Part shown: positions 3,024-20,917 of the stretch, piece after piece
How positions within the stretch are numbered: the first letter of the stretch is position 1
Layout: every line of letters begins with the position of its first letter
DNA from: an uncultured Rhodobacterales bacterium
GTDB lineage: Bacteria; Pseudomonadota; Alphaproteobacteria; Rhodobacterales; Rhodobacteraceae
Reading direction: 5' to 3'
Assembly (NCBI GenBank): GCA_964632495.1
Contig: CAZWDS010000001.1
Span: forward strand, 21,318-85,317
DNA length: 64,000 nt
Notes under the pieces: model-generated
What the model was told of the DNA's origin: nothing
Databases searched by the model: none
What the model saw: the letters and a program-made list of their open reading frames with translations, nothing else
Made by a program: the position numbers and the translations under genes

Positions 3024-3796
3024 CGCACCCCGAACGGGGAATGAACACGAGCCGCGAAGTGATCAGCCCAAATCCAAAGTATCAATGGCGCTGTCAAAGC
3101 CAGCAAAAAAAGCGCTCCCAACGTGATCGCAGGTGCACCGACGAAGGCGACCATAAGTTGTGGCATCGCACGGTTGATGACGCCCAAAGCCAAATTATAA
3201 AGAAGTGAAACAGCGACAAAGGGTGCCGCCAAAGTAAAAGCAAACGAAAACGCAGCTGATACCGCATCAACAACCCATCTTGCCAAATCGTCGCTTCCAA
3301 TGGGATCGACCGGGTTAATCAGTTCATAGGACATGATGAACATCATCGAAATTTGAACGTGCAAACCAAGTTCCGCGGCAAGCGCCAAAGCCGCCAGTAG
3401 AAGAATGAAGCCAATCGCCGGTTGTGGATCAACAGACGCACCGCCCAACAGTTGCGAAAGGGATGTTGATTGTGCCGAGATCGTTGCGGCAACTTGAAGC
3501 CCCACCAAAATGAGCCTTAACGAAAGGCCAAGAGCTAGCCCTGTGATCACTTCGGTCAGGGCCAGGATTATAAACAGACGCTCTAAGTCAATAACCGCCT
3601 GAAGTTCGGGTAGAACAGCGGGCGCGACCACCAAGGTAAAGGCGATTGTCGCAGCAAGACGGACTCGCACAGGGACCATCATTTCACCAAAGGCCGGCAC
3701 AAGCGCGATAGCCGCACCAACACGCAGAAAGACCAAAAAAACTGGCTGCAGAAACTGAGGTGCGAGACCAAAGAGCTCGGCCAGTGCATCGGTCAT
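3020..3796 (-). CDS. fliR: FliR, flagellar export apparatus membrane protein
   Basis: 258-aa polytopic membrane protein between flhA and flhB, with 4-nt overlaps on both sides. FliR-like N-terminus (FLVFLRVGAAIALVPAFGE). Confidence 0.9.
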   Translation of the reverse strand: MTDALAELFGLAPQFLQPVFLVFLRVGAAIALVPAFGEMMVPVRVRLAATIAFTLVVAPAVLPELQAVIDLERLFIILALTEVITGLALGLSLRLILVGLQVAATISAQSTSLSQLLGGASVDPQPAIGFILLLAALALAAELGLHVQISMMFIMSYELINPVDPIGSDDLARWVVDAVSAAFSFAFTLAAPFVAVSLLYNLALGVINRAMPQLMVAFVGAPAITLGALFLLALTAPLILWIWADHFAARVHSPFGVR

Positions 3797-5856
3797 GTTG
3801 GAACAAGCCCAACAAGTGATGGGCGCGCCTCGCTTCCAAGTTCTTCAAACGACAGCACTGGATTGGTGATCCCTTTGGCCGCCAGCAAAGTTCGAAGAAA
3901 GCGCCGCCGCCTTACAGATGTGATGATCGCGGGAAAGTGCCCGGCTTCACTGGCGCGGTTGAGCTTCTCGGTCACACCGCTCGTCAGTTTCTGGAAGAGA
4001 TCAGGCGGTAATGCCACATCACCGCCGTTCGATTCATCCAGTTGATGCATCGCGAATGCCGCTTCCCATTCTGGCGATAGCTGGATCAATGGGATTGTGC
4101 CATCGCTTGATTTAACTTCGGCTACGATTTGAAAAGCCAATCGCTGACGAACATGTTCGCAGATCGAATCTGGGCTTGCCCCGACGCTACGCCCTTCTGA
4201 TACCGCTTCGACAATCATGGGCAGGTTTCGGATAGAAACACGCTCTTCCAGAAGCAAACGCAAGACTGACAAAAGTAATTCCGTCGGGACCTTGTCCGGG
4301 ATAAGTTCGTCAAACAAGCGTCTGTTAGCCTCGCTGCGCGCCACATCCGTTAGACTGCACAGTTCATCCAACAGTCGACGCATTGCCTTTAGGCTTAGAA
4401 TTCGTGGCAGGTTCGTCTTGATGACTTCCAACAGATGGGTGGCCAAGACCTCTGCAGGATTGACCACGGTCGCGCCCGCTAGCGCGGCGCTGTCGGCGTC
4501 GGCGTGCACCAACCATCGCGCTGGCGCACCGTAAACTGGTTCTTTGACATCACGACCAGCGGGAATGGCCATATCTTCGGGCGGCAAAAGCGCAAGAACT
4601 CTGGACGGGTCAAGATTGTCGCGAGCCTGTTCTACGCCTTGCACACGGATCACGTATTCTCCCGGTACAAGACCAGCGTCGTCTGTTAATCGAATCTCCG
4701 GCAAAATCACTCCAAACATTGTCGCCACATGTTGGCGCATGTTTACAATGCGGGCATCAAGGCCTGTCACGGGATCTAGAATCATAGGGACCAGATCTTG
4801 AGAGAATTCGACGTGAATTTCATCCAGATCCAGAACATCCCCCATGGTCTTTTCATGGGGGGTCCCATCGTCTTCAACCTCATCAATAGATTGATCGGTC
4901 TCTGGCTTGACTGAGATTCGCCACGCGATGGTCCCAAGAATTACAGCGCCCCCAAGAAACGGAAGAAACGGCAACCCGGGGAAAAGAGCAAAGACCGCCA
5001 TCAACGCTGCCACCGTCGCCAAGGCGGGAGGATATTTCCCAAGTTGCGCAAGTACAGCCAAATCCGCGGAACCACGCGCACCACCCCGTGACAACAATAG
5101 TGCGGTAGCAATCGAAATAATGACTGCTGGAATTTGGCTGACCAAACCGTCGCCAACTGTCAGAATTGCATAGGTTTCGAACGCACGTCCGATCTCCATG
5201 TCATGAACCGCAACGCCGATGATCAACCCCATGACGATATTGAGAAGCGTGATCAGAAGACCGGCAATAGCGTCCCCCTTCACGAATTTCGACGCACCAT
5301 CAAGTGAGCCAAGAAAGGTCGTTTCTGCCTGTTCAATTTCGCGCCGTCTTTTTGCCTCGGTGTGATCGATCGCACCAGCCGACATGTCGCTGTCAATTGC
5401 CAGTTGCTTTCCCGGCATTCCGTCCAAAGCAAAACGGGCCCCCACTTCGGCCATTCGTGCAGCGCCCTTTGTGATGACCATAAAGTTCACAATCATCAGA
5501 ACTCCGAACACCACAAGCCCTAGGAATAGACTTCCGCCCATAATAAAATTTGCAAAACCTTCAATGACTTCACCGGCAGCGCCCGTGCCCGTGTGCCCCT
5601 GACCGATGATTAGCTTGGTTGACGAAATGTTTAAGGAAAGTCGCAGCATTAGCGAAGCGAGCAGGACGGTCGGGAAAGACGAAAAATCCAGCGGGCGTTC
5701 TACAAATATTGTGATCGAAAATATGAGGATCGCGAACGAGAACGAAGCGGCCAATCCAATGTCCAATACCCAGGACGGCATTGGCAAAACCATCATGACG
5801 ATAATAGCCATCAGCGCTAGCGTCATCAGTATCGTAGGGCTGAAAATATGCTTCAT
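3793..5856 (-). CDS. flhA: FlhA, flagellar export gate protein
   Basis: 687 aa. Conserved FHIPEP region (FPTVLL..SLMLRLSLNISSTKLII, GGSLFLGLVVF, RFALDGMPGKQLAIDSD) and a cytoplasmic C-domain. Confidence 0.95.
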   Translation of the reverse strand: MKHIFSPTILMTLALMAIIVMMVLPMPSWVLDIGLAASFSFAILIFSITIFVERPLDFSSFPTVLLASLMLRLSLNISSTKLIIGQGHTGTGAAGEVIEGFANFIMGGSLFLGLVVFGVLMIVNFMVITKGAARMAEVGARFALDGMPGKQLAIDSDMSAGAIDHTEAKRRREIEQAETTFLGSLDGASKFVKGDAIAGLLITLLNIVMGLIIGVAVHDMEIGRAFETYAILTVGDGLVSQIPAVIISIATALLLSRGGARGSADLAVLAQLGKYPPALATVAALMAVFALFPGLPFLPFLGGAVILGTIAWRISVKPETDQSIDEVEDDGTPHEKTMGDVLDLDEIHVEFSQDLVPMILDPVTGLDARIVNMRQHVATMFGVILPEIRLTDDAGLVPGEYVIRVQGVEQARDNLDPSRVLALLPPEDMAIPAGRDVKEPVYGAPARWLVHADADSAALAGATVVNPAEVLATHLLEVIKTNLPRILSLKAMRRLLDELCSLTDVARSEANRRLFDELIPDKVPTELLLSVLRLLLEERVSIRNLPMIVEAVSEGRSVGASPDSICEHVRQRLAFQIVAEVKSSDGTIPLIQLSPEWEAAFAMHQLDESNGGDVALPPDLFQKLTSGVTEKLNRASEAGHFPAIITSVRRRRFLRTLLAAKGITNPVLSFEELGSEARPSLVGLVPT

Positions 5857-6633
5857 CTAGCGCGCCTCTACCAAAGGTTTCGGCGAGGCAAAATTGATGA
5901 GGCGCCCGGTGGTATGATCATTCAGCTGGACAAGCGAGCCGCGCCTAGCCGGTGACCCTTGCTGCAACAGAGGGTAACGATTGACGCGCGCAATGATGTC
6001 CAACGGCGCTGTAGGCTGTGGAACGTCTGCAATAACCAGCTCGACTGGTACCACCTCGCTCAGCCGGGATCGAATGCGCTCAAATCGGGCAGCATACTTG
6101 TTAGCGAACTTTGGCGTGCGAGAATGATAGGCGCCCGCTGCTTTCGTCCAATCCCCAAACTCATTGTAAAGGTCACCTAAGAATGATGCAGCGTACCGCG
6201 CATTTGCCATTGGATCGAACATCTCTTCGACTGATTGAAATGCATGGCCATGCCAACGATAATTGATCTGAAAACAGCCTACATCGAAACTACGAGCGCC
6301 TCTTGCAAAGTGTCTATCTACATATGCCTGTGCTTCGCCGCGCGTATCGAACCATTTTCCGGCCCCTTCCATATTGACCGTCCAGGGCCAGGGCAAGAAA
6401 CCCTCAGAGTTTTTTCGCCCAGTTTCTGTCAAAGAAATCGCGCGTAAAACTTCTAGCGGAACGCCACTTTCTTGTGAAATGGCCAGTGCCGCACGTTCGC
6501 AAATCGATGCCCCCGAACGCCGATCAACTTTGGCAATTGAACTACACGGAAAGGCAATCATAAAAACTAATGTCGCAACGGCAGCTATGCGTCGCATTTG
6601 ATTGGAATTAGACATATTCAGCATTCTGCTCAT
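5857..6633 (-). CDS. Flagellum-associated lytic transglycosylase (SLT domain)
   Basis: Signal-like N-terminus, then an SLT catalytic region (GVPLEVLRAISLTETGR...PWPWTVN...GCFQINYRWH). It lies immediately upstream of flhA on the same strand. Confidence 0.8.
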   Translation of the reverse strand: MSRMLNMSNSNQMRRIAAVATLVFMIAFPCSSIAKVDRRSGASICERAALAISQESGVPLEVLRAISLTETGRKNSEGFLPWPWTVNMEGAGKWFDTRGEAQAYVDRHFARGARSFDVGCFQINYRWHGHAFQSVEEMFDPMANARYAASFLGDLYNEFGDWTKAAGAYHSRTPKFANKYAARFERIRSRLSEVVPVELVIADVPQPTAPLDIIARVNRYPLLQQGSPARRGSLVQLNDHTTGRLINFASPKPLVEAR

Positions 6634-6685: not shown

Positions 6686-8974
6686 TTATTTCATGAACGA
6701 TGTTGAATCACTGGAAAGCTCAGTCTCGGATAGAAGTGATTTCGCATGTGCACGCAATTGTTGCGACGAGACGATCAATTGCCCGTTCGCCGGTTCTTCT
6801 GTCACTTCTTCCGATACCTCAGCGGGCAAAGCGAGTAATCTGGCCGCATCCGACAGAACACCGCTGGTCCCTTCGATGTTGCGTTCGGCAATCCAATTCC
6901 AATTGCCTGCGCGAATAGCAGATTGTGCTGCCTCTTCGATCAGCCCATCTGACTCAAATGCTTTGATCGCAGAGTCATTCTCGCCAACACTGCTAAGCAG
7001 TCTTCCAAGCTGCAGTGCGACTTTCGCGTTCTCTTGTGCGGTTAGCAATTCCACGGCTTCATTGGTCCGGCCGTTTGCCGAAAGAATATCGCTTGCAGTT
7101 TCGACCTCCTCGATCGTTTGCGGCTCATCAATCAGGTACTTCTGTGCTCGCGAAGCAAGCCCGATCGACAACAGCTTTCTTGCGACCAACAACCTATCCC
7201 TGGATTCAATATCTTGAACCTCGAATAGCTTGGAAAACGCGAGCTCCGCCCTGAGGAACGCGCTGTCCTCAGCATCTTTAGCGGCTTGAACAACGCCAGA
7301 TGCAGCAAGGTCTTGGCGTGTCGCGTGGTTCAGACCTGGCGTGTCTTCAGCTAGCGCCAGCCGCAATTCGTCGAACTGACCCAAAGCGACGCGGCCGCGA
7401 AGACCCGCTAGGTTCAATAGAGACGCGACTTCGGTGCCCTCCGTCGCTCTTGCAAGAGAGGGCGCGTCTTCAACCCAAGCGGGATTAGGCGCCATTCTCC
7501 GCCGCTCGGCATCTTCTAAAAGCTCCAGAAGAGCTTCAGCCGCTGTGACATCCGTTCCGTTCGAGATCTCAACAAGCGTTTCACGTGCGAGTTCGGGGCG
7601 AGTCCCTTCAAGTTCAAGCCGCGCCGTAACAAGTTCGCTCTCATTGGATTGCAGTCCACCTCTTGCTACAGCACTCACAGCATTCCTGGCTTCGGTATCT
7701 AATCCAACTTCCCGAAGCCTCTCTGCGAGTACCGGACCAAGGTGAGCGCGATGGTGCGGTGCCAGTCCTGAAAAAGTTGCCAAGATACTATCGGTCGAAT
7801 CCGGGACGTCGCTTTTTTCAATCGGGCGCGCCAAGGCAGCCCAAAGGGCGATCTGTCCATCACAGTAAATCTGGCCATCCAATATGTGAGTATCACTCTC
7901 TCCATGGTCGACGATATCCGCAAGTGCTTGAAGAAGCTGCTTGGAGCGGCCATCATTCATAAATCTTGTCGCGACGTGTGCTTCAGATCCAAATCCAAGA
8001 GAGATATAAAAACGGGCAAGGCTTCGTGCGCCTTCATGTGTCACTTGCCCATTCTCTGAAAACGCAGAACGCCGGAGCTGGCCAATTTCACTTATTCCAG
8101 AGTCATGGCTCCAAGTCACAACATCCACTTCACTATCTGAGAAGCAAACTGTTCCACCACGGGTTGGGGAATGCGAACGATCTGCAGGCGCGATCGCCCG
8201 ATCAAGACTGGTCTCAATTTTTATGTTCGAACGGTCGGAAAGTAATTCGCTTGTTGTACCTCTAGGGTCAATATTTCGATCGTTTTGAAGCTCTGGACCC
8301 GCCGCGACCAATCCTTGTGATGCAGCACGCGATAACTGACGACTTATCATTTCCACAGCCTGACTTTTGGTTTCATGGGAAACGTCGAAACCAAGCGTAT
8401 CCATCAGTCCTGAATTCGGATCGAAGTTCCTCCGCGTCAATCTTCCCGAATCTGAACTTTGGAATTCCGTCGCACTTAAGTATTCTGAATTTTCAGGCCG
8501 AGGAGCAGGTGTTGAAGCTTCTTCTGTCACTGCCAGGCTCTGATTTATTTCCGGATGGAATGGATGTGATGGCTGCCGTAGCGCTTCATCATTTTCAGTG
8601 CCAACCGAAACTCTACTAATCGAATCTCTAATCTCAACGACCAAACTACCGTCACCAAAGGGATAGACATCTGTATCACATGCACAGGATAAATTGATCG
8701 AGAACCCATTGCCTGCCCCCTCTTCTGAAATCGCTTCGATTCTCGGATCTTTCCTAGCAATTGCAGCGTCGAAATCTCTTATTGAATACCCCGAAGTTTC
8801 GAATCGTAGATTCAGACGACTTTCCAAGCGAATGACTGACCATTCCGGACGCGATTGAAACGTTAAGACAAGACGTGTTGCATTGGGTGAATGACCGATA
8901 CTAACAAGCACATCGTCCGCGATAACCGCATTAGGAAAAAAGTTAACAAGAAGAATGCACAAAAGCCGTCTCAT
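6686..8974 (-). CDS. Secreted 762-aa protein of unknown function in the motA-flhA operon
   Basis: Signal peptide (MRRLLCILLVNFFPNAVIADD). Beta-rich N-module, acidic/Ser-rich linker, and an Ala/Leu/Glu-rich helical-repeat C-half. Its start overlaps the motA stop (8971-8974). Confidence 0.7.
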   Translation of the reverse strand: MRRLLCILLVNFFPNAVIADDVLVSIGHSPNATRLVLTFQSRPEWSVIRLESRLNLRFETSGYSIRDFDAAIARKDPRIEAISEEGAGNGFSINLSCACDTDVYPFGDGSLVVEIRDSISRVSVGTENDEALRQPSHPFHPEINQSLAVTEEASTPAPRPENSEYLSATEFQSSDSGRLTRRNFDPNSGLMDTLGFDVSHETKSQAVEMISRQLSRAASQGLVAAGPELQNDRNIDPRGTTSELLSDRSNIKIETSLDRAIAPADRSHSPTRGGTVCFSDSEVDVVTWSHDSGISEIGQLRRSAFSENGQVTHEGARSLARFYISLGFGSEAHVATRFMNDGRSKQLLQALADIVDHGESDTHILDGQIYCDGQIALWAALARPIEKSDVPDSTDSILATFSGLAPHHRAHLGPVLAERLREVGLDTEARNAVSAVARGGLQSNESELVTARLELEGTRPELARETLVEISNGTDVTAAEALLELLEDAERRRMAPNPAWVEDAPSLARATEGTEVASLLNLAGLRGRVALGQFDELRLALAEDTPGLNHATRQDLAASGVVQAAKDAEDSAFLRAELAFSKLFEVQDIESRDRLLVARKLLSIGLASRAQKYLIDEPQTIEEVETASDILSANGRTNEAVELLTAQENAKVALQLGRLLSSVGENDSAIKAFESDGLIEEAAQSAIRAGNWNWIAERNIEGTSGVLSDAARLLALPAEVSEEVTEEPANGQLIVSSQQLRAHAKSLLSETELSSDSTSFMK

Positions 8975-9840
8975 GCAGCATCCTGCTTTGTATTTTTCAT
9001 TGCTTCTTCAAGATCCCCGAACGTCGGGCGCACGCCGTGAGGTGCGTTTTGACGCCCGACCTCGATGCATATTGCGGTTGCATGGTTGTGCAAGTTTGCA
9101 ACTAGAACCTCGCGAATCATTTCATAGAAATGGTGATCTTCTTCCGCGACGCCGCCCAACCGAGCCGCAAATGGTCCTGCAAATCCATAGGCTAAAAAGA
9201 CACCCAAGAAGGTTCCAACCAAAGCGCCACCAATCAGCTTTCCCAAGATCTCGGGCGGCTGATCGATCGAGCTCATGGTCTTGATCACACCCAGTACCGC
9301 AGCAACAATGCCTAATGCAGGAAGACCATCTGCCAGAGCTTGCATCGCGTGACTTGAATGCTGCTGGTGGTGCAAGTTCGCTTCCAGGCGCTTGTTCAGG
9401 ACCTCTTCCACTTGCATCGGGTCGTTATAGTTCATCGACGCAGACCGAAGTGTATCGCAGATTATCTCTATTGCTTCATGGTCAGCCAGTATTTTGGGGT
9501 AAGAACTGAAGATCGAAGAGTTTTCCGGTTCTTCGATGTGTTCTTCCAAGCCTACGGGATTCTGGCGAGCCAAACGTAAAAGCTCGAACAAAAGAACCAA
9601 AAGATCGCGATAGTCCTCTGCCTTCCACTTCGCTCCCTTGAAGACTTTGCCGACATCTTTGACCGCCTGCTTTGCACCAGAGCCACTGTTCGAAATCAAG
9701 AACGCCCCAAGCCCGGCCCCCCCGATCATCATCATCGCGAAAGGAAGCGACTTGAGTATAATTGCCATATTTGCACCGGCAGCAAGGTATCCGCCGAAGA
9801 CCATCACGAAAATGATAATTATTCCAATAATTCCGATCAA
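8971..9840 (-). CDS. motA: MotA, flagellar stator proton-channel protein
   Basis: 289 aa. N-terminus MIGIIGIIIIFVMVFGGY, four TM segments, and the conserved C-terminal TM3/4 region (LPALGIVAAVLGVIKTM...GALVGTFLGVFLAYGF). Confidence 0.9.
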   Translation of the reverse strand: MIGIIGIIIIFVMVFGGYLAAGANMAIILKSLPFAMMMIGGAGLGAFLISNSGSGAKQAVKDVGKVFKGAKWKAEDYRDLLVLLFELLRLARQNPVGLEEHIEEPENSSIFSSYPKILADHEAIEIICDTLRSASMNYNDPMQVEEVLNKRLEANLHHQQHSSHAMQALADGLPALGIVAAVLGVIKTMSSIDQPPEILGKLIGGALVGTFLGVFLAYGFAGPFAARLGGVAEEDHHFYEMIREVLVANLHNHATAICIEVGRQNAPHGVRPTFGDLEEAMKNTKQDAA

Positions 9841-9905: not shown

Positions 9906-10544
9906 TCACTGTTTCACTGATGGCTCCGATGGATCTGGCACTATTTCACGGGGAACGTCCGCATTCCGCCCAGCCAGAACAACGCTGATCGAATACGCCA
10001 GGTCTGGATCCAGTCCGGCCAAAATTGCAGCAGCAGAATCCGAGCGCATTCGGCCAAGGAAGCCAGCCGCAAAGCTTGGCTCCATCCTCTCGAACAAGGC
10101 AGCGGCTTGTTCTGGCTTCATATTTTCGTATACGGCCGTCAATTGGCCGATGTCGGTTTCCGCCGCTTTGTCCGCTTGCGCCATGGTTGCACGCAAGGTT
10201 TCCTCAGCCACTTCAAGACGTTTTAGATCTTTTGCAACGGCGCCTTCGATAAGTGTCAGGGCTTGAATGCGCGCTTCCAATTCGGCCTCACGCTCGGCCA
10301 CGCGCTCTTCGCGCTCTTTCGTCTCAGCCAAAAGTTTGATCAGATCAGGCGCCAGGTCTTTGACCTCGGTATCAACGACATGCTCGTCGCTCGTATTGGC
10401 TTGAATTTGTTCTTTAAGTTCCAGGGCAATTGCTGCGCCTGTGCCGCTAAGGCGCAGCAACGCAGAACCAATAAGTACCAACGCTACGATCGTAAGAGCA
10501 CCACGGCCCGAAGCCCAGGCCCGTTTGGGCATCTTGCGTTTCAT
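9906..10544 (-). CDS. motE: MotE-family protein (MgtE_N-like repeats; putative periplasmic chaperone)
   Basis: N-terminal anchor/signal, a coiled coil, then MKPEQAAALFERMEPSFAAGFLGRMRSDSAAAILAGLDP, typical of the COG3334/MotE family. Confidence 0.65.
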   Translation of the reverse strand: MKRKMPKRAWASGRGALTIVALVLIGSALLRLSGTGAAIALELKEQIQANTSDEHVVDTEVKDLAPDLIKLLAETKEREERVAEREAELEARIQALTLIEGAVAKDLKRLEVAEETLRATMAQADKAAETDIGQLTAVYENMKPEQAAALFERMEPSFAAGFLGRMRSDSAAAILAGLDPDLAYSISVVLAGRNADVPREIVPDPSEPSVKQ

Positions 10545-10933
10545 TCCGCGGCCTCCTGTAATCCGGTTCGGCGCGTTTGAAACAGCGTTTTGTCCAAAGC
10601 AATCACTTCACCTTCTTCTTCGCAGGTCATCGAAGTTTTCTCGGTATCGACCGGCAAGTCGTGCATCGAAGCGACCAACAATTCCAATCGCTGCGCAACG
10701 CCTTCCGCGCGACCCGTCATCGAATCGAGCGATTCCGCAGACGATGTTGTGGCTGAACGAGCCGTTTCCAAGGCGTTAGTCATGTCATCAACCTGCGATG
10801 ATAAAACAGCAATTGCCCCGCCCACACCTTTCTCAAGATCAGTGAAGCGGCTCAAACGACGCGACAGGACAATGCAGTAAAGACCAGCGCCCAAGGCACC
10901 GGCAATCAGCAAAATATCGGCGATCATCTCCAT
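10541..10933 (-). CDS. 130-aa single-pass membrane coiled-coil protein, unknown function, flagellar operon
   Basis: One N-terminal TM helix (IADILLIAGALGAGLYCIVL), then a helical Ser/Ala/Glu-rich segment. 4-nt overlap with the motE start, and 8 nt downstream of fliL. Confidence 0.55.
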   Translation of the reverse strand: MEMIADILLIAGALGAGLYCIVLSRRLSRFTDLEKGVGGAIAVLSSQVDDMTNALETARSATTSSAESLDSMTGRAEGVAQRLELLVASMHDLPVDTEKTSMTCEEEGEVIALDKTLFQTRRTGLQEAAE

Positions 10934-10941
10934 AGTCGGCC

Positions 10942-11418
10942 TCAGTTCAGTACAAATTCCATTACAAGCAAGTCGCGAACCCGGTCACCGCCTACGACCA
11001 GATCGATGCGTCGGCGCATCTGCGAACGCAGCGTCAAAAGAGCCGACGGATCTTCGATTTCAGCAACCGTCAGGGATTGAAGGTAGGTATTCAGAACATC
11101 CACTACCCGCGGCAGCAATTTTTCGATATCCGATTGGCCGTTTGGATCGACTTCAAGTTCGGCGCGAAACCGAAGATGTCGCCGCTCGGACGGGCCGCCA
11201 ACTGACACCGTCATTGGCTCAACCGGAATAAACGCCAGATCATCACTCAGCATATCGTGCGTAGCGGCTTCTTCTCCACCGCTCCCGCCAAGCATGCCAG
11301 ACGTAAAAGCAAAGGCGCCACCACCACCGACCAAAGCCAAAACAAGCCCAATGACTAAGCCACCACGCTTTTTCTTGGGGGTTTCACCTTCGTCTTCGAT
11401 GTCTTCTTCGCCGGCCAT
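10942..11418 (-). CDS. fliL: FliL, flagellar basal-body-associated protein (paralog 2)
   Basis: Acidic N-terminus and a TM helix. Canonical FliL domain (FIPVEPMTVSV...RHLRFRAELEVD...LLPRVVDVLNTYLQSL...LLVMEFVLN). Confidence 0.85.
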   Translation of the reverse strand: MAGEEDIEDEGETPKKKRGGLVIGLVLALVGGGGAFAFTSGMLGGSGGEEAATHDMLSDDLAFIPVEPMTVSVGGPSERRHLRFRAELEVDPNGQSDIEKLLPRVVDVLNTYLQSLTVAEIEDPSALLTLRSQMRRRIDLVVGGDRVRDLLVMEFVLN

Positions 11419-20071: not shown

Positions 20072-20917
20072 CTAGGTTTTGTGCCGGAGCAGAATGATCT
20101 CGATCCGGTTATTTCGGATAGACAGCGTGTCACGAACGACAGGTTGTCGATCTGCATACCCCGTCACCCGCTGCATGCGGTCTTCGCTTAAGCCACTTTC
20201 AATCAGCAGTTTTCGAACCGCATTTGCCCGAGCTGATGATTGCTCCCACACCGGGTTTTCGCGTGCTGCCAGAGGTACACTGGCCAGATAACCCTGAACT
20301 GCGATGTCATTCGCAGCCACCCGAAAAACCTCGGCCACCGAAAAGACAACGTCGACCAAAACATCGCTGGGGACTGCGCCGCTTAAAAAAAGCGGTGCAT
20401 CCGGAATATCAAACACCTCAATGATCAAGCCTTCATCTGTCAGTTTGGTCACCACATGGCGCTGCAAAAGATCGCTGACCAAGCTTTCACCGCTTTTCGC
20501 CGAAAGCTTTTTTTCCAGGTCTTCCAGTTGATCCGCCTGTCCCTCGCCCCCTTCGCCTTCGCTTTCCGGACTAACCCCACTGTCGCCCTGGTTCGACTCA
20601 GACGCTGATGGCAAAGACACGCCTGCGCCGGTTCCGTTGCTGGCCAAAGTGTTTTCGGTGAAGACGCTGTCGCCACCAAATGCGCCATCCCCCCCGCCAG
20701 ACACCTTGTTCACCGGAATCGTCGGGTTGAAATAGTCGGCAATACCCTTGCGCTGTTTTTCTGTCGTCGCACCCAGAAGCCACATTAACAAAAAGAACGC
20801 CATCATCGCCGTCACAAAGTCAGCATAAGCCACCTTCCAGGCGCCACCATGGTGACCGCCTGCAATGACTTTCTTCCGCCTGATGATAATCGGCGCCGGT
20901 TGGTCCGACATGTCCAC
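20072..20917 (-). CDS. motB: MotB, flagellar stator protein with OmpA-like peptidoglycan-binding domain
   Basis: GGAWKVAYADFVTAMMAFFLLMWLL plug/TM region with the conserved Asp. C-terminal OmpA-like segment (RANAVRKLLIESGLSEDRMQRVTGYADRQP). Confidence 0.85.
   Translation of the reverse strand: MDMSDQPAPIIIRRKKVIAGGHHGGAWKVAYADFVTAMMAFFLLMWLLGATTEKQRKGIADYFNPTIPVNKVSGGGDGAFGGDSVFTENTLASNGTGAGVSLPSASESNQGDSGVSPESEGEGGEGQADQLEDLEKKLSAKSGESLVSDLLQRHVVTKLTDEGLIIEVFDIPDAPLFLSGAVPSDVLVDVVFSVAEVFRVAANDIAVQGYLASVPLAARENPVWEQSSARANAVRKLLIESGLSEDRMQRVTGYADRQPVVRDTLSIRNNRIEIILLRHKT

Follow-up and report, generated by a model that had tools for sequence, protein, structure and literature searches.

What is the product of the long gene that lies between motA and a lytic transglycosylase gene in a Rhodobacterales flagellar operon, and what does it do for the motor? 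The question is raised by a 64,000-nt stretch of DNA from an uncultured Rhodobacterales bacterium (assembly GCA_964632495.1, contig CAZWDS010000001.1, positions 21,318 to 85,317; the whole stretch is hereafter the window), in which an open reading frame (ORF) of 762 aa, here denoted the motK-like gene, overlaps motA by 4 nt. A preliminary description had delimited this ORF and its overlap correctly, leaving the strand (minus) unstated, and had presented the product as an uncharacterised secreted protein. That label is out of date because sensitive searches place the protein in the family of MotK of Cereibacter sphaeroides and CP4 of Phaeobacter inhibens. With a probability of about 0.88, it is an orthologue of MotK, a periplasmic accessory protein of the 'archetypal' flagellum of the Rhodobacterales (Fla2 of C. 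sphaeroides; the fla1-type cluster of P. inhibens), with a stator-scaffold role. The gene is not new: earlier publications cover the family, its place in the operon of Rhodobacterales and its PflA-like architecture.

Homology to MotK and equivalence with CP4 by position

MotK of C. sphaeroides (RSWS8N_12065, UniProt Q3IY86) is a 652-aa periplasmic protein whose gene ends the Fla2 operon fliL2-pflI-motE-motA2-motK, where MotE has 185 aa (Velez-Gonzalez 2024, PMC10954123). It begins with a 24-residue signal peptide and an eight-strand N-domain, for which the AMIN domain of AmiC served as the template; it also has disordered regions rich in proline and a TPR-like C-part. The motK mutants are flagellated and paralysed; MotE and MotB2 are binding partners of the protein, which needs MotA2 and MotB2 to localise to the pole. 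Genes similar to motK that follow motA in Paracoccaceae and Roseobacteraceae were noted by the same authors (PMC10954123 for all these points).

We compared the window protein with a 651-aa protein of the sister species Cereibacter johrii. BLASTP aligned the two with 28% identity over 550 residues (E = 2e-27), and when the family alignment was compared with the C. johrii protein by hhalign, the probability was 100% (E = 6.9e-44, 565 columns). Both proteins possess the CxC pair of the beta domain, the LSRxAAxG helix, C277, W288, YLSLGFGAEA, C371, W378 and FSxLPxxLRxxLGPxLxE. It is because of these matches and shared landmarks that the window protein is assigned to the MotK family. At the C. johrii locus (L064), fliL, a 130-aa pflI-like gene, a 185-aa motE and motA precede the 651-aa ORF, which begins with an ATGA overlap and is followed by an SLT-domain gene and flhA. 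From the genus, the length (651 against 652 aa) and the identical operon, we infer that the C. johrii protein is the MotK orthologue. By way of C. johrii, MotK of C. sphaeroides shares with the window gene the order fliL-pflI-motE-motA-motK-slt-flhA and the ATGA overlap, along with a signal peptide, an AMIN-like beta-sandwich, a disordered linker and TPR-like helices in the protein.

The family is large. A word-seeded search yielded 52 full-length homologues of 725-800 aa from Silicimonas, Boseongicola, Roseovarius and Paracoccaceae/Rhodobacteraceae, all labelled hypothetical or TPR protein in the databases, and 28 of these were aligned and used as a profile. Against 1.84 billion proteins, this profile matched 3987 cluster representatives at E <= 1e-3, of which 2326 also passed E <= 1e-30. 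With one genome sampled per genus, a homologue at E <= 1e-10 is present in 143 of the 201 genera of the window's family; the genome of the window itself carries a single copy. The ORF is real and conserved, and its chance origin is far excluded by the 52 close homologues, the thousands of cluster representatives and the strict synteny described below. The window protein is 110 residues longer than Cereibacter MotK and has about four additional structured helical hairpins (residues 621-751). Because most members among the matches listed from the profile search are about 725-870 aa long and cover the whole profile, the long form appears to be typical, and Cereibacter MotK shorter and divergent.

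In P. inhibens DSM 17395, CP4 is encoded by PGA1_c35690, between motA (PGA1_c35680) and sltF (PGA1_c35700) (mSystems 2025, PMC12363192). Six transposon mutants of this gene are immotile, and the mutant still secretes FliC, FlgK and FlgE; CP1-4 are described as universal in the fla1-type clusters of Rhodobacterales, the function of CP4 is called 'enigmatic', and neither MotK nor MotE occurs in the text of the paper (PMC12363192). The likeness to the window gene extends to the same position between motA and sltF, to CP2 (pflI-like) and CP3 (motE-like) upstream and to a requirement for motility in P. inhibens, and the universality of CP4 is consistent with the spread across genera counted here. 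Going by position and family-wide homology, one gene has two literatures, under the name MotK in Cereibacter and CP4 in Phaeobacter, which are usefully brought together. CP2 and CP3 are also called enigmatic in the P. inhibens paper, which does not cite the MotE/PflI literature (PMC12363192).

The main value of the identification lies in annotation. A family of this size, found in about 70% of the genera of its taxonomic family, is without a Pfam or NCBIfam model, and the databases describe its members as 'hypothetical' or 'TPR repeat protein', though its part in motor rotation was demonstrated in 2024.

Domain architecture and predicted structure

The outline drawn in the preliminary description, namely, a cleavable-looking signal peptide, a beta-rich N-module with a weak AMIN-type impression, an acidic/Ser-rich linker and an Ala/Leu/Glu-rich TPR-like C-half, was recovered almost in full; for the last part, the composition and the fold stand, but it spans about 470 aa, more than the proposed 350 aa or so. 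The N-terminus, judged by sequence features, consists of MRR, a hydrophobic core (mean Kyte-Doolittle value 2.2) and a cleavage-like site between VIA and DD, with equivalents in all 27 full-length homologues of the 28-sequence alignment. A lipoprotein reading was rejected, as Cys6 is too close to the N-terminus and is not conserved.

For the N-domain, AlphaFold2 was run on residues 1-130 with an alignment of 35 N-domain sequences, which resulted in a model of nine beta-strands at residues 20-117 with a predicted local distance difference test score (pLDDT) of 86.5. In a Foldseek search of the PDB, the top match of this model was AmiC of E. coli (4bin, E = 8.3e-4), and the AMIN/B2 domains of PilQ (4aqz, 4av2 and 3jc8) ranked 5, 16 and 17, with template modelling (TM) scores of 0.53-0.56. 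An AMIN-like N-domain is thus supported by the modelled fold, not by Pfam.

In the model of the whole protein, obtained with the 28-sequence alignment (mean pLDDT 77), a signal helix and the N-domain are followed by a linker with pLDDT < 50 at residues 120-204, 226-255 and 262-267. Its first part (residues 118-204), which is modelled with low confidence, is rich in Ser, Glu, Thr and Pro (16% Ser and 16% Asp+Glu), and the linker as a whole varies in length and is poorly conserved across the alignment. It is punctuated by a short helix in which R216, A217, Q220 and G221 are invariant; the C. johrii protein has the related stretch QQLSRGAAAGAV. The helical region (residues 280-751) contains 14% Ala, 13% Leu and 10% Glu; C277 at its edge, W288, C371 and W378 are invariant, and conservation is strongest at about 395-550. 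Together with the invariant helix of the linker and four invariant cysteines, this block is a candidate for interaction or stabilisation. The cysteines in question, C97, C99, C277 and C371 of the predicted periplasmic protein, are invariant in the 28 aligned sequences; the CxC pair is missing in some more distant members (L013, L016, L020 and L023). The C-terminal helical extension (residues 622-762; window positions 6686-7108) contains a conserved GDWxWI motif (W692, W694) and a long final helix, and frequently terminates with FTN.

Only sub-threshold TPR matches were obtained in a Pfam scan of the whole protein, and a search of the PDB sequences with the single sequence yielded nothing meaningful; the profile search of PDB sequences matched consensus TPR proteins at positions 615-688. 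When the whole model was compared with the PDB by Foldseek, chain K of 9hmf came first (E = 2.4e-6, 836 aligned columns, TM 0.21), followed by generic TPR proteins (APC/C subunits, Ctr9, BBS4 and IFT proteins). 9HMF is the periplasmic motor scaffold of Campylobacter jejuni (PMC12222027). We take chain K to be PflA because its 773 aa correspond to PflA residues 16-788, without the 15-residue signal, and because chain L, with 820 aa, is PflB.

The large size, the low-complexity regions and the position in a flagellar operon could also suit a named flagellar protein that has diverged, such as FliK, FlgJ or MotC itself. These identities were rejected as exceedingly improbable: the protein has no match at E <= 1 to any flagellar model of Pfam or NCBIfam, and a Sec signal peptide is incompatible with FliK, a substrate of the flagellar type III export system. 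Moreover, P. inhibens has a separate FliK (PMC12363192), and MotC, although it is likewise a TPR-rich partner of MotE, has no N-terminal AMIN-like domain according to a review (PMC13023049).

Operon context and a likely role in the motor

The minus-strand operon of the window has the order fliL-pflI-motE-motA-motK-like-sltF-flhA-fliR-flhB, with a 141-aa ORF at its end (Table 1); the names flhA, fliR and flhB rest on sequence and place in the operon, not on a family scan. The start codon of the motK-like gene (ATG, 8974-8972) shares the ATGA with the stop codon of motA (TGA, 8973-8971), and a ribosome-binding site, AGGA, is located 6 nt ahead of it. The neighbours proposed in the preliminary description, that is, motA, the lytic transglycosylase gene with flhA beyond it and a MotE-family gene two genes upstream, were all identified. 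In addition to its MgtE_N match, the motE-like protein weakly matches the NCBIfam collar_FlbB model, based on spirochaete FlbB (E = 3.6e-5), which fits the proposal that MotE forms an E-ring. MotE is a predicted binding partner of the motK-like protein, and so is MotB, by analogy with the MotK-MotB2 binding in C. sphaeroides; the best NCBIfam match of the motB product is the MotB model, at 180 bits, under the cut-off of 277. The charged 141-aa ORF after flhB (1507-1932, minus) has no Pfam or NCBIfam match at E <= 1 and occupies the position of P. inhibens PGA1_c35740, for which no mutant was obtained.

Table 1. Features of the motK-like locus, in window coordinates.
Feature	Position	Strand	Evidence and remarks
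motK-like gene, 762 aa	6686..8974	minus	ORF and translation; match to the C. johrii orthologue of MotK
Sec-type signal peptide, residues 1-19 (MRRLLCILLVNFFPNAVIA, followed by DD)	8918..8974	minus	sequence features; equivalent N-termini in the 27 full-length members of the 28-sequence alignment
N-terminal beta-sandwich, residues 20-117, AMIN-like fold, CxC at C97/C99	8624..8917	minus	AlphaFold2 and Foldseek
Largely disordered Ser/Glu/Pro-rich linker, residues 118-279	8138..8623	minus	pLDDT, composition, 28-sequence alignment
Short conserved linker helix, residues 205-225, consensus ELSRAAAQGL	8300..8362	minus	invariant alignment columns; modelled helix 205-219
TPR-like alpha-helical repeats, residues 280-751, ~26 helices	6722..8137	minus	AlphaFold2 pLDDT mostly 85-96; Foldseek; profile matches
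motA	8971..9840	minus	TIGR03818 344 bits, over cut-off; Pfam MotA_N and MotA_ExbB; translationally coupled, upstream of the motK-like gene
motE-like gene, 212 aa	9906..10544	minus	Pfam MgtE_N 29.4 bits (cut-off 25.9); position as motE in C. sphaeroides (PMC10954123); CP3 equivalent
pflI-like gene, 130 aa, DUF6468	10541..10933	minus	PF20072 E 2.4e-5, slightly under cut-off; position as pflI in C. sphaeroides (PMC10954123); CP2 equivalent
fliL	10942..11418	minus	Pfam FliL 46.8 bits; first gene of the operon
sltF-like lytic transglycosylase gene	5857..6633	minus	Pfam SLT (PF01464) 31.9 bits; downstream of the motK-like gene; equivalent to sltF PGA1_c35700 of P. inhibens (PMC12363192)
flhA, 687-aa ORF	3793..5856	minus	sequence and operon position; follows the SLT gene
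motB	20072..20917	minus	Pfam MotB_plug 70 bits, OmpA 35.7 bits; 11 kb from the motK-like gene

The operon order is widely conserved. A scan of a genome collection with the 28-sequence profile identified 163 related loci, and synteny was determined for the best 80 of these by tblastn with the operon proteins of the window. The motA gene is directly upstream in 78 of the 80 loci, the other two being cut by contig ends; fliL-pflI-motE is present in 70 and flhA is downstream in 66. Conservation and synteny in the flagellar clusters of Rhodobacterales, which the preliminary description had suggested testing, are evident. The SLT gene was found in 56 loci; in at least 10 of the 80, it is undetectable though flhA follows motK, either immediately or past a gap (L017, L019-L022, L029, L037, L039, L041 and L055). 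From its absence in these otherwise syntenic loci, the sltF-like gene appears to be an optional member of the operon.

This distribution bears on the suggestion, made in the preliminary description, that the protein is a scaffold for the neighbouring transglycosylase. In a more specific form of the idea, it would direct SltF, through its AMIN-like domain, to the point at which the rod passes through the peptidoglycan. In AmiC, the AMIN domain targets the amidase to peptidoglycan, AmiC is the top fold match of the N-domain, and the motK-like gene is immediately upstream of an SLT-domain gene, an arrangement shared by more than half of the loci analysed. Nevertheless, the loci with flhA but no detectable SLT gene argue against a function tied to the transglycosylase, and, in contrast to the universal CP4, sltF was found in no more than two of five model clusters (PMC12363192). 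Furthermore, a defect in rod penetration would stop the secretion of hook and filament proteins, yet motK and CP4 mutants still make these. The scaffold for SltF, which we consider very improbable, was rejected as the primary function on account of the missing SLT genes.

Another alternative is that the protein is mainly an assembly factor, that is, a periplasmic TPR chaperone or scaffold for the basal body or the export apparatus, the loss of which would block or reduce flagellar assembly. Assembly chaperones commonly are TPR proteins, MotE was first described as a chaperone of MotC in Sinorhizobium (PMC13023049), and the exoproteome of the P. inhibens CP4 mutant contains fewer flagellar proteins, with no electron microscopy of the mutant reported (PMC12363192). 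However, motK mutants of C. sphaeroides and fssB mutants of Caulobacter bear filaments and are paralysed (PMC10954123, PMC7885107), hook, junction and filament proteins are still secreted by CP4 mutants (PMC12363192), and the localisation of MotK depends on the stator proteins (PMC10954123). A predominant role in assembly hence seems improbable.

By analogy with MotK, FssB and PflA, the motK-like protein is most likely a periplasmic spoke or anchor that links the MotE ring to MotB and recruits or activates the stators. The preliminary description had proposed a MotC-analogous periplasmic stator partner, which agrees with the published role of the homologous MotK (PMC10954123, PMC13023049). The protein would be exported by Sec into the periplasm, where C. 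sphaeroides MotK is experimentally known to reside (PMC10954123), and would be located at the flagellar pole. Its TPR arm would bind the dimer of MotE encoded two genes upstream, a protein identified with the E-ring protein FlgY/FlbB in a 2026 review and the preprint behind it (PMC13023049, PMC11870540), as well as the periplasmic part of MotB, and the N-terminal sandwich may contact peptidoglycan or another element of the scaffold. The assembly would then recruit the MotA/MotB stators around the rotor or keep them open and anchored to the wall, such that loss of the motK-like protein would leave flagella assembled but paralysed.

Several observations weigh against the assignment as a MotK orthologue and stator scaffold. 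The window protein is only about 28% identical to the characterised MotK lineage, the comparison was made with C. johrii in place of C. sphaeroides MotK itself, and the alignment ends near residue 620, with the last 140 or so structured residues of the window protein opposite the proline-rich disordered tail of the Cereibacter protein. No curated Pfam or NCBIfam model matches the motK-like protein (in NCBIfam, nothing at E <= 1), and there is no match to Pfam AMIN (PF11741) or AMIN-like (PF24837) at E <= 1 with either the whole protein or residues 1-130. The AMIN fold match is modest (TM about 0.5 at the E value given above), and small heat-shock-protein beta-sandwiches score nearly as high. 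The TM-score of the PflA match is low, as expected for flexible solenoids, and the identity of the chain was deduced from its length. For a Rhodobacterales motor, the 'spoke' geometry is an analogy, and peptidoglycan is a putative ligand of MotK. The window gene is equated with CP4 by gene position and family-wide homology, and the reduced set of flagellar proteins secreted by CP4 mutants leaves room for a role in assembly (PMC12363192).

The window adds no new principle to what is known of MotK. The proposed recruitment or activation of MotAB stators by an AMIN-like/TPR protein together with the MotE ring concerns marine Roseobacter-group bacteria, in which the swim-or-stick switch shapes the interactions with algae.

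Comparison with other periplasmic motor proteins

MotK, MotC and CC_2058 have been proposed to be PflA-like partners of the MotE/FlgY E-ring (PMC11870540, PMC13023049), and in the 2026 review, MotC and MotK count as equivalents, each a TPR partner of MotE (PMC13023049). MotC of Sinorhizobium meliloti is periplasmic, TPR-rich, a partner of MotE and needed for rotation; compared by description, it differs from the MotK family in that it is without an AMIN-like N-domain and is encoded with motB instead of motA (PMC13023049).

FssB (CC_2058) of Caulobacter crescentus, mutants of which are paralysed (PMC7885107), and long motE-adjacent proteins of other alphaproteobacteria resemble the MotK family in the Sec signal, one or more AMIN-like N-modules, a TPR region and a gene beside motE. 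Proteins of the FssB type are much longer, often with two tandem AMIN-like modules, and the sequence likeness, as seen in the motE-adjacent proteins of other families, is confined to the N-domain. Among 250 class-wide genomes, 60 that belong to other families are matched by the MotK profile (E 1e-12 to 1e-5); nearly all of these matches are restricted to profile positions of about 5-175 and located in frames of about 1000-1400 aa. A motE homologue lies within a few kb in all eight loci fetched from other families (L082-L089), one of which has the full fliL-pflI-motE-motA order, and in four of the eight ORFs another similar module stands at the start, so that the AMIN-like modules are in tandem. 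The exported proteins of these loci (830-1350 aa; for example L083:6236-9712 and L082:6394-9906) resemble the long relatives of the FssB/CC_2058 type. Some of these ORFs reach the Pfam AMIN-like threshold (29.7 bits in L083, cut-off 27) and also have TPR matches, which suggests an indirect sequence link between the MotK N-domain and AMIN. The N-domain matches lend support at the sequence level to the published, structure-based kinship of MotK, FssB/CC_2058 and similar proteins.

The closest structural counterpart appears to be PflA, the radial spoke of the proximal disk in C. jejuni and Helicobacter pylori, the inferred identity of the chain that the Foldseek search with the whole model placed first. 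PflA consists of an N-terminal beta-sandwich, an unstructured linker and a superhelix of 16-17 TPRs (PMC12222027, PMC11870540), the same three-part plan, AMIN-like sandwich included, as that of the window protein; it is also periplasmic, required for stator function and active together with a ring protein of the MotE/FlgY type. The profile search of all PDB sequences found no match to PflA itself and, apart from the consensus TPR proteins, PflB at E > 1 only. Nor is a PflB-like gene evident in the window's operon, to which the search was limited rather than covering the whole genome. We know of no PflB-like rim protein in Rhodobacterales.

A point of difference from PflA is that MotK binds MotB directly in vitro. 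It is conceivable, if rather unlikely, that in Rhodobacterales a single polypeptide, with MotK serving as both spoke and stator clamp, does the job that is divided in Campylobacter between the PflA spoke and the PflB rim. The roughly 140-residue structured C-terminal extension of the long form, absent from Cereibacter MotK, could be the contact with the MotE ring. The linker helix (residues 205-225), together with C97, C99, C277 and C371, could form a module, possibly stabilised by disulfides, that grips the periplasmic domain of MotB. In PflA, it is the flexible linker that grips PflB; the corresponding linker of the MotK family is disordered and variable, with this one invariant helix.

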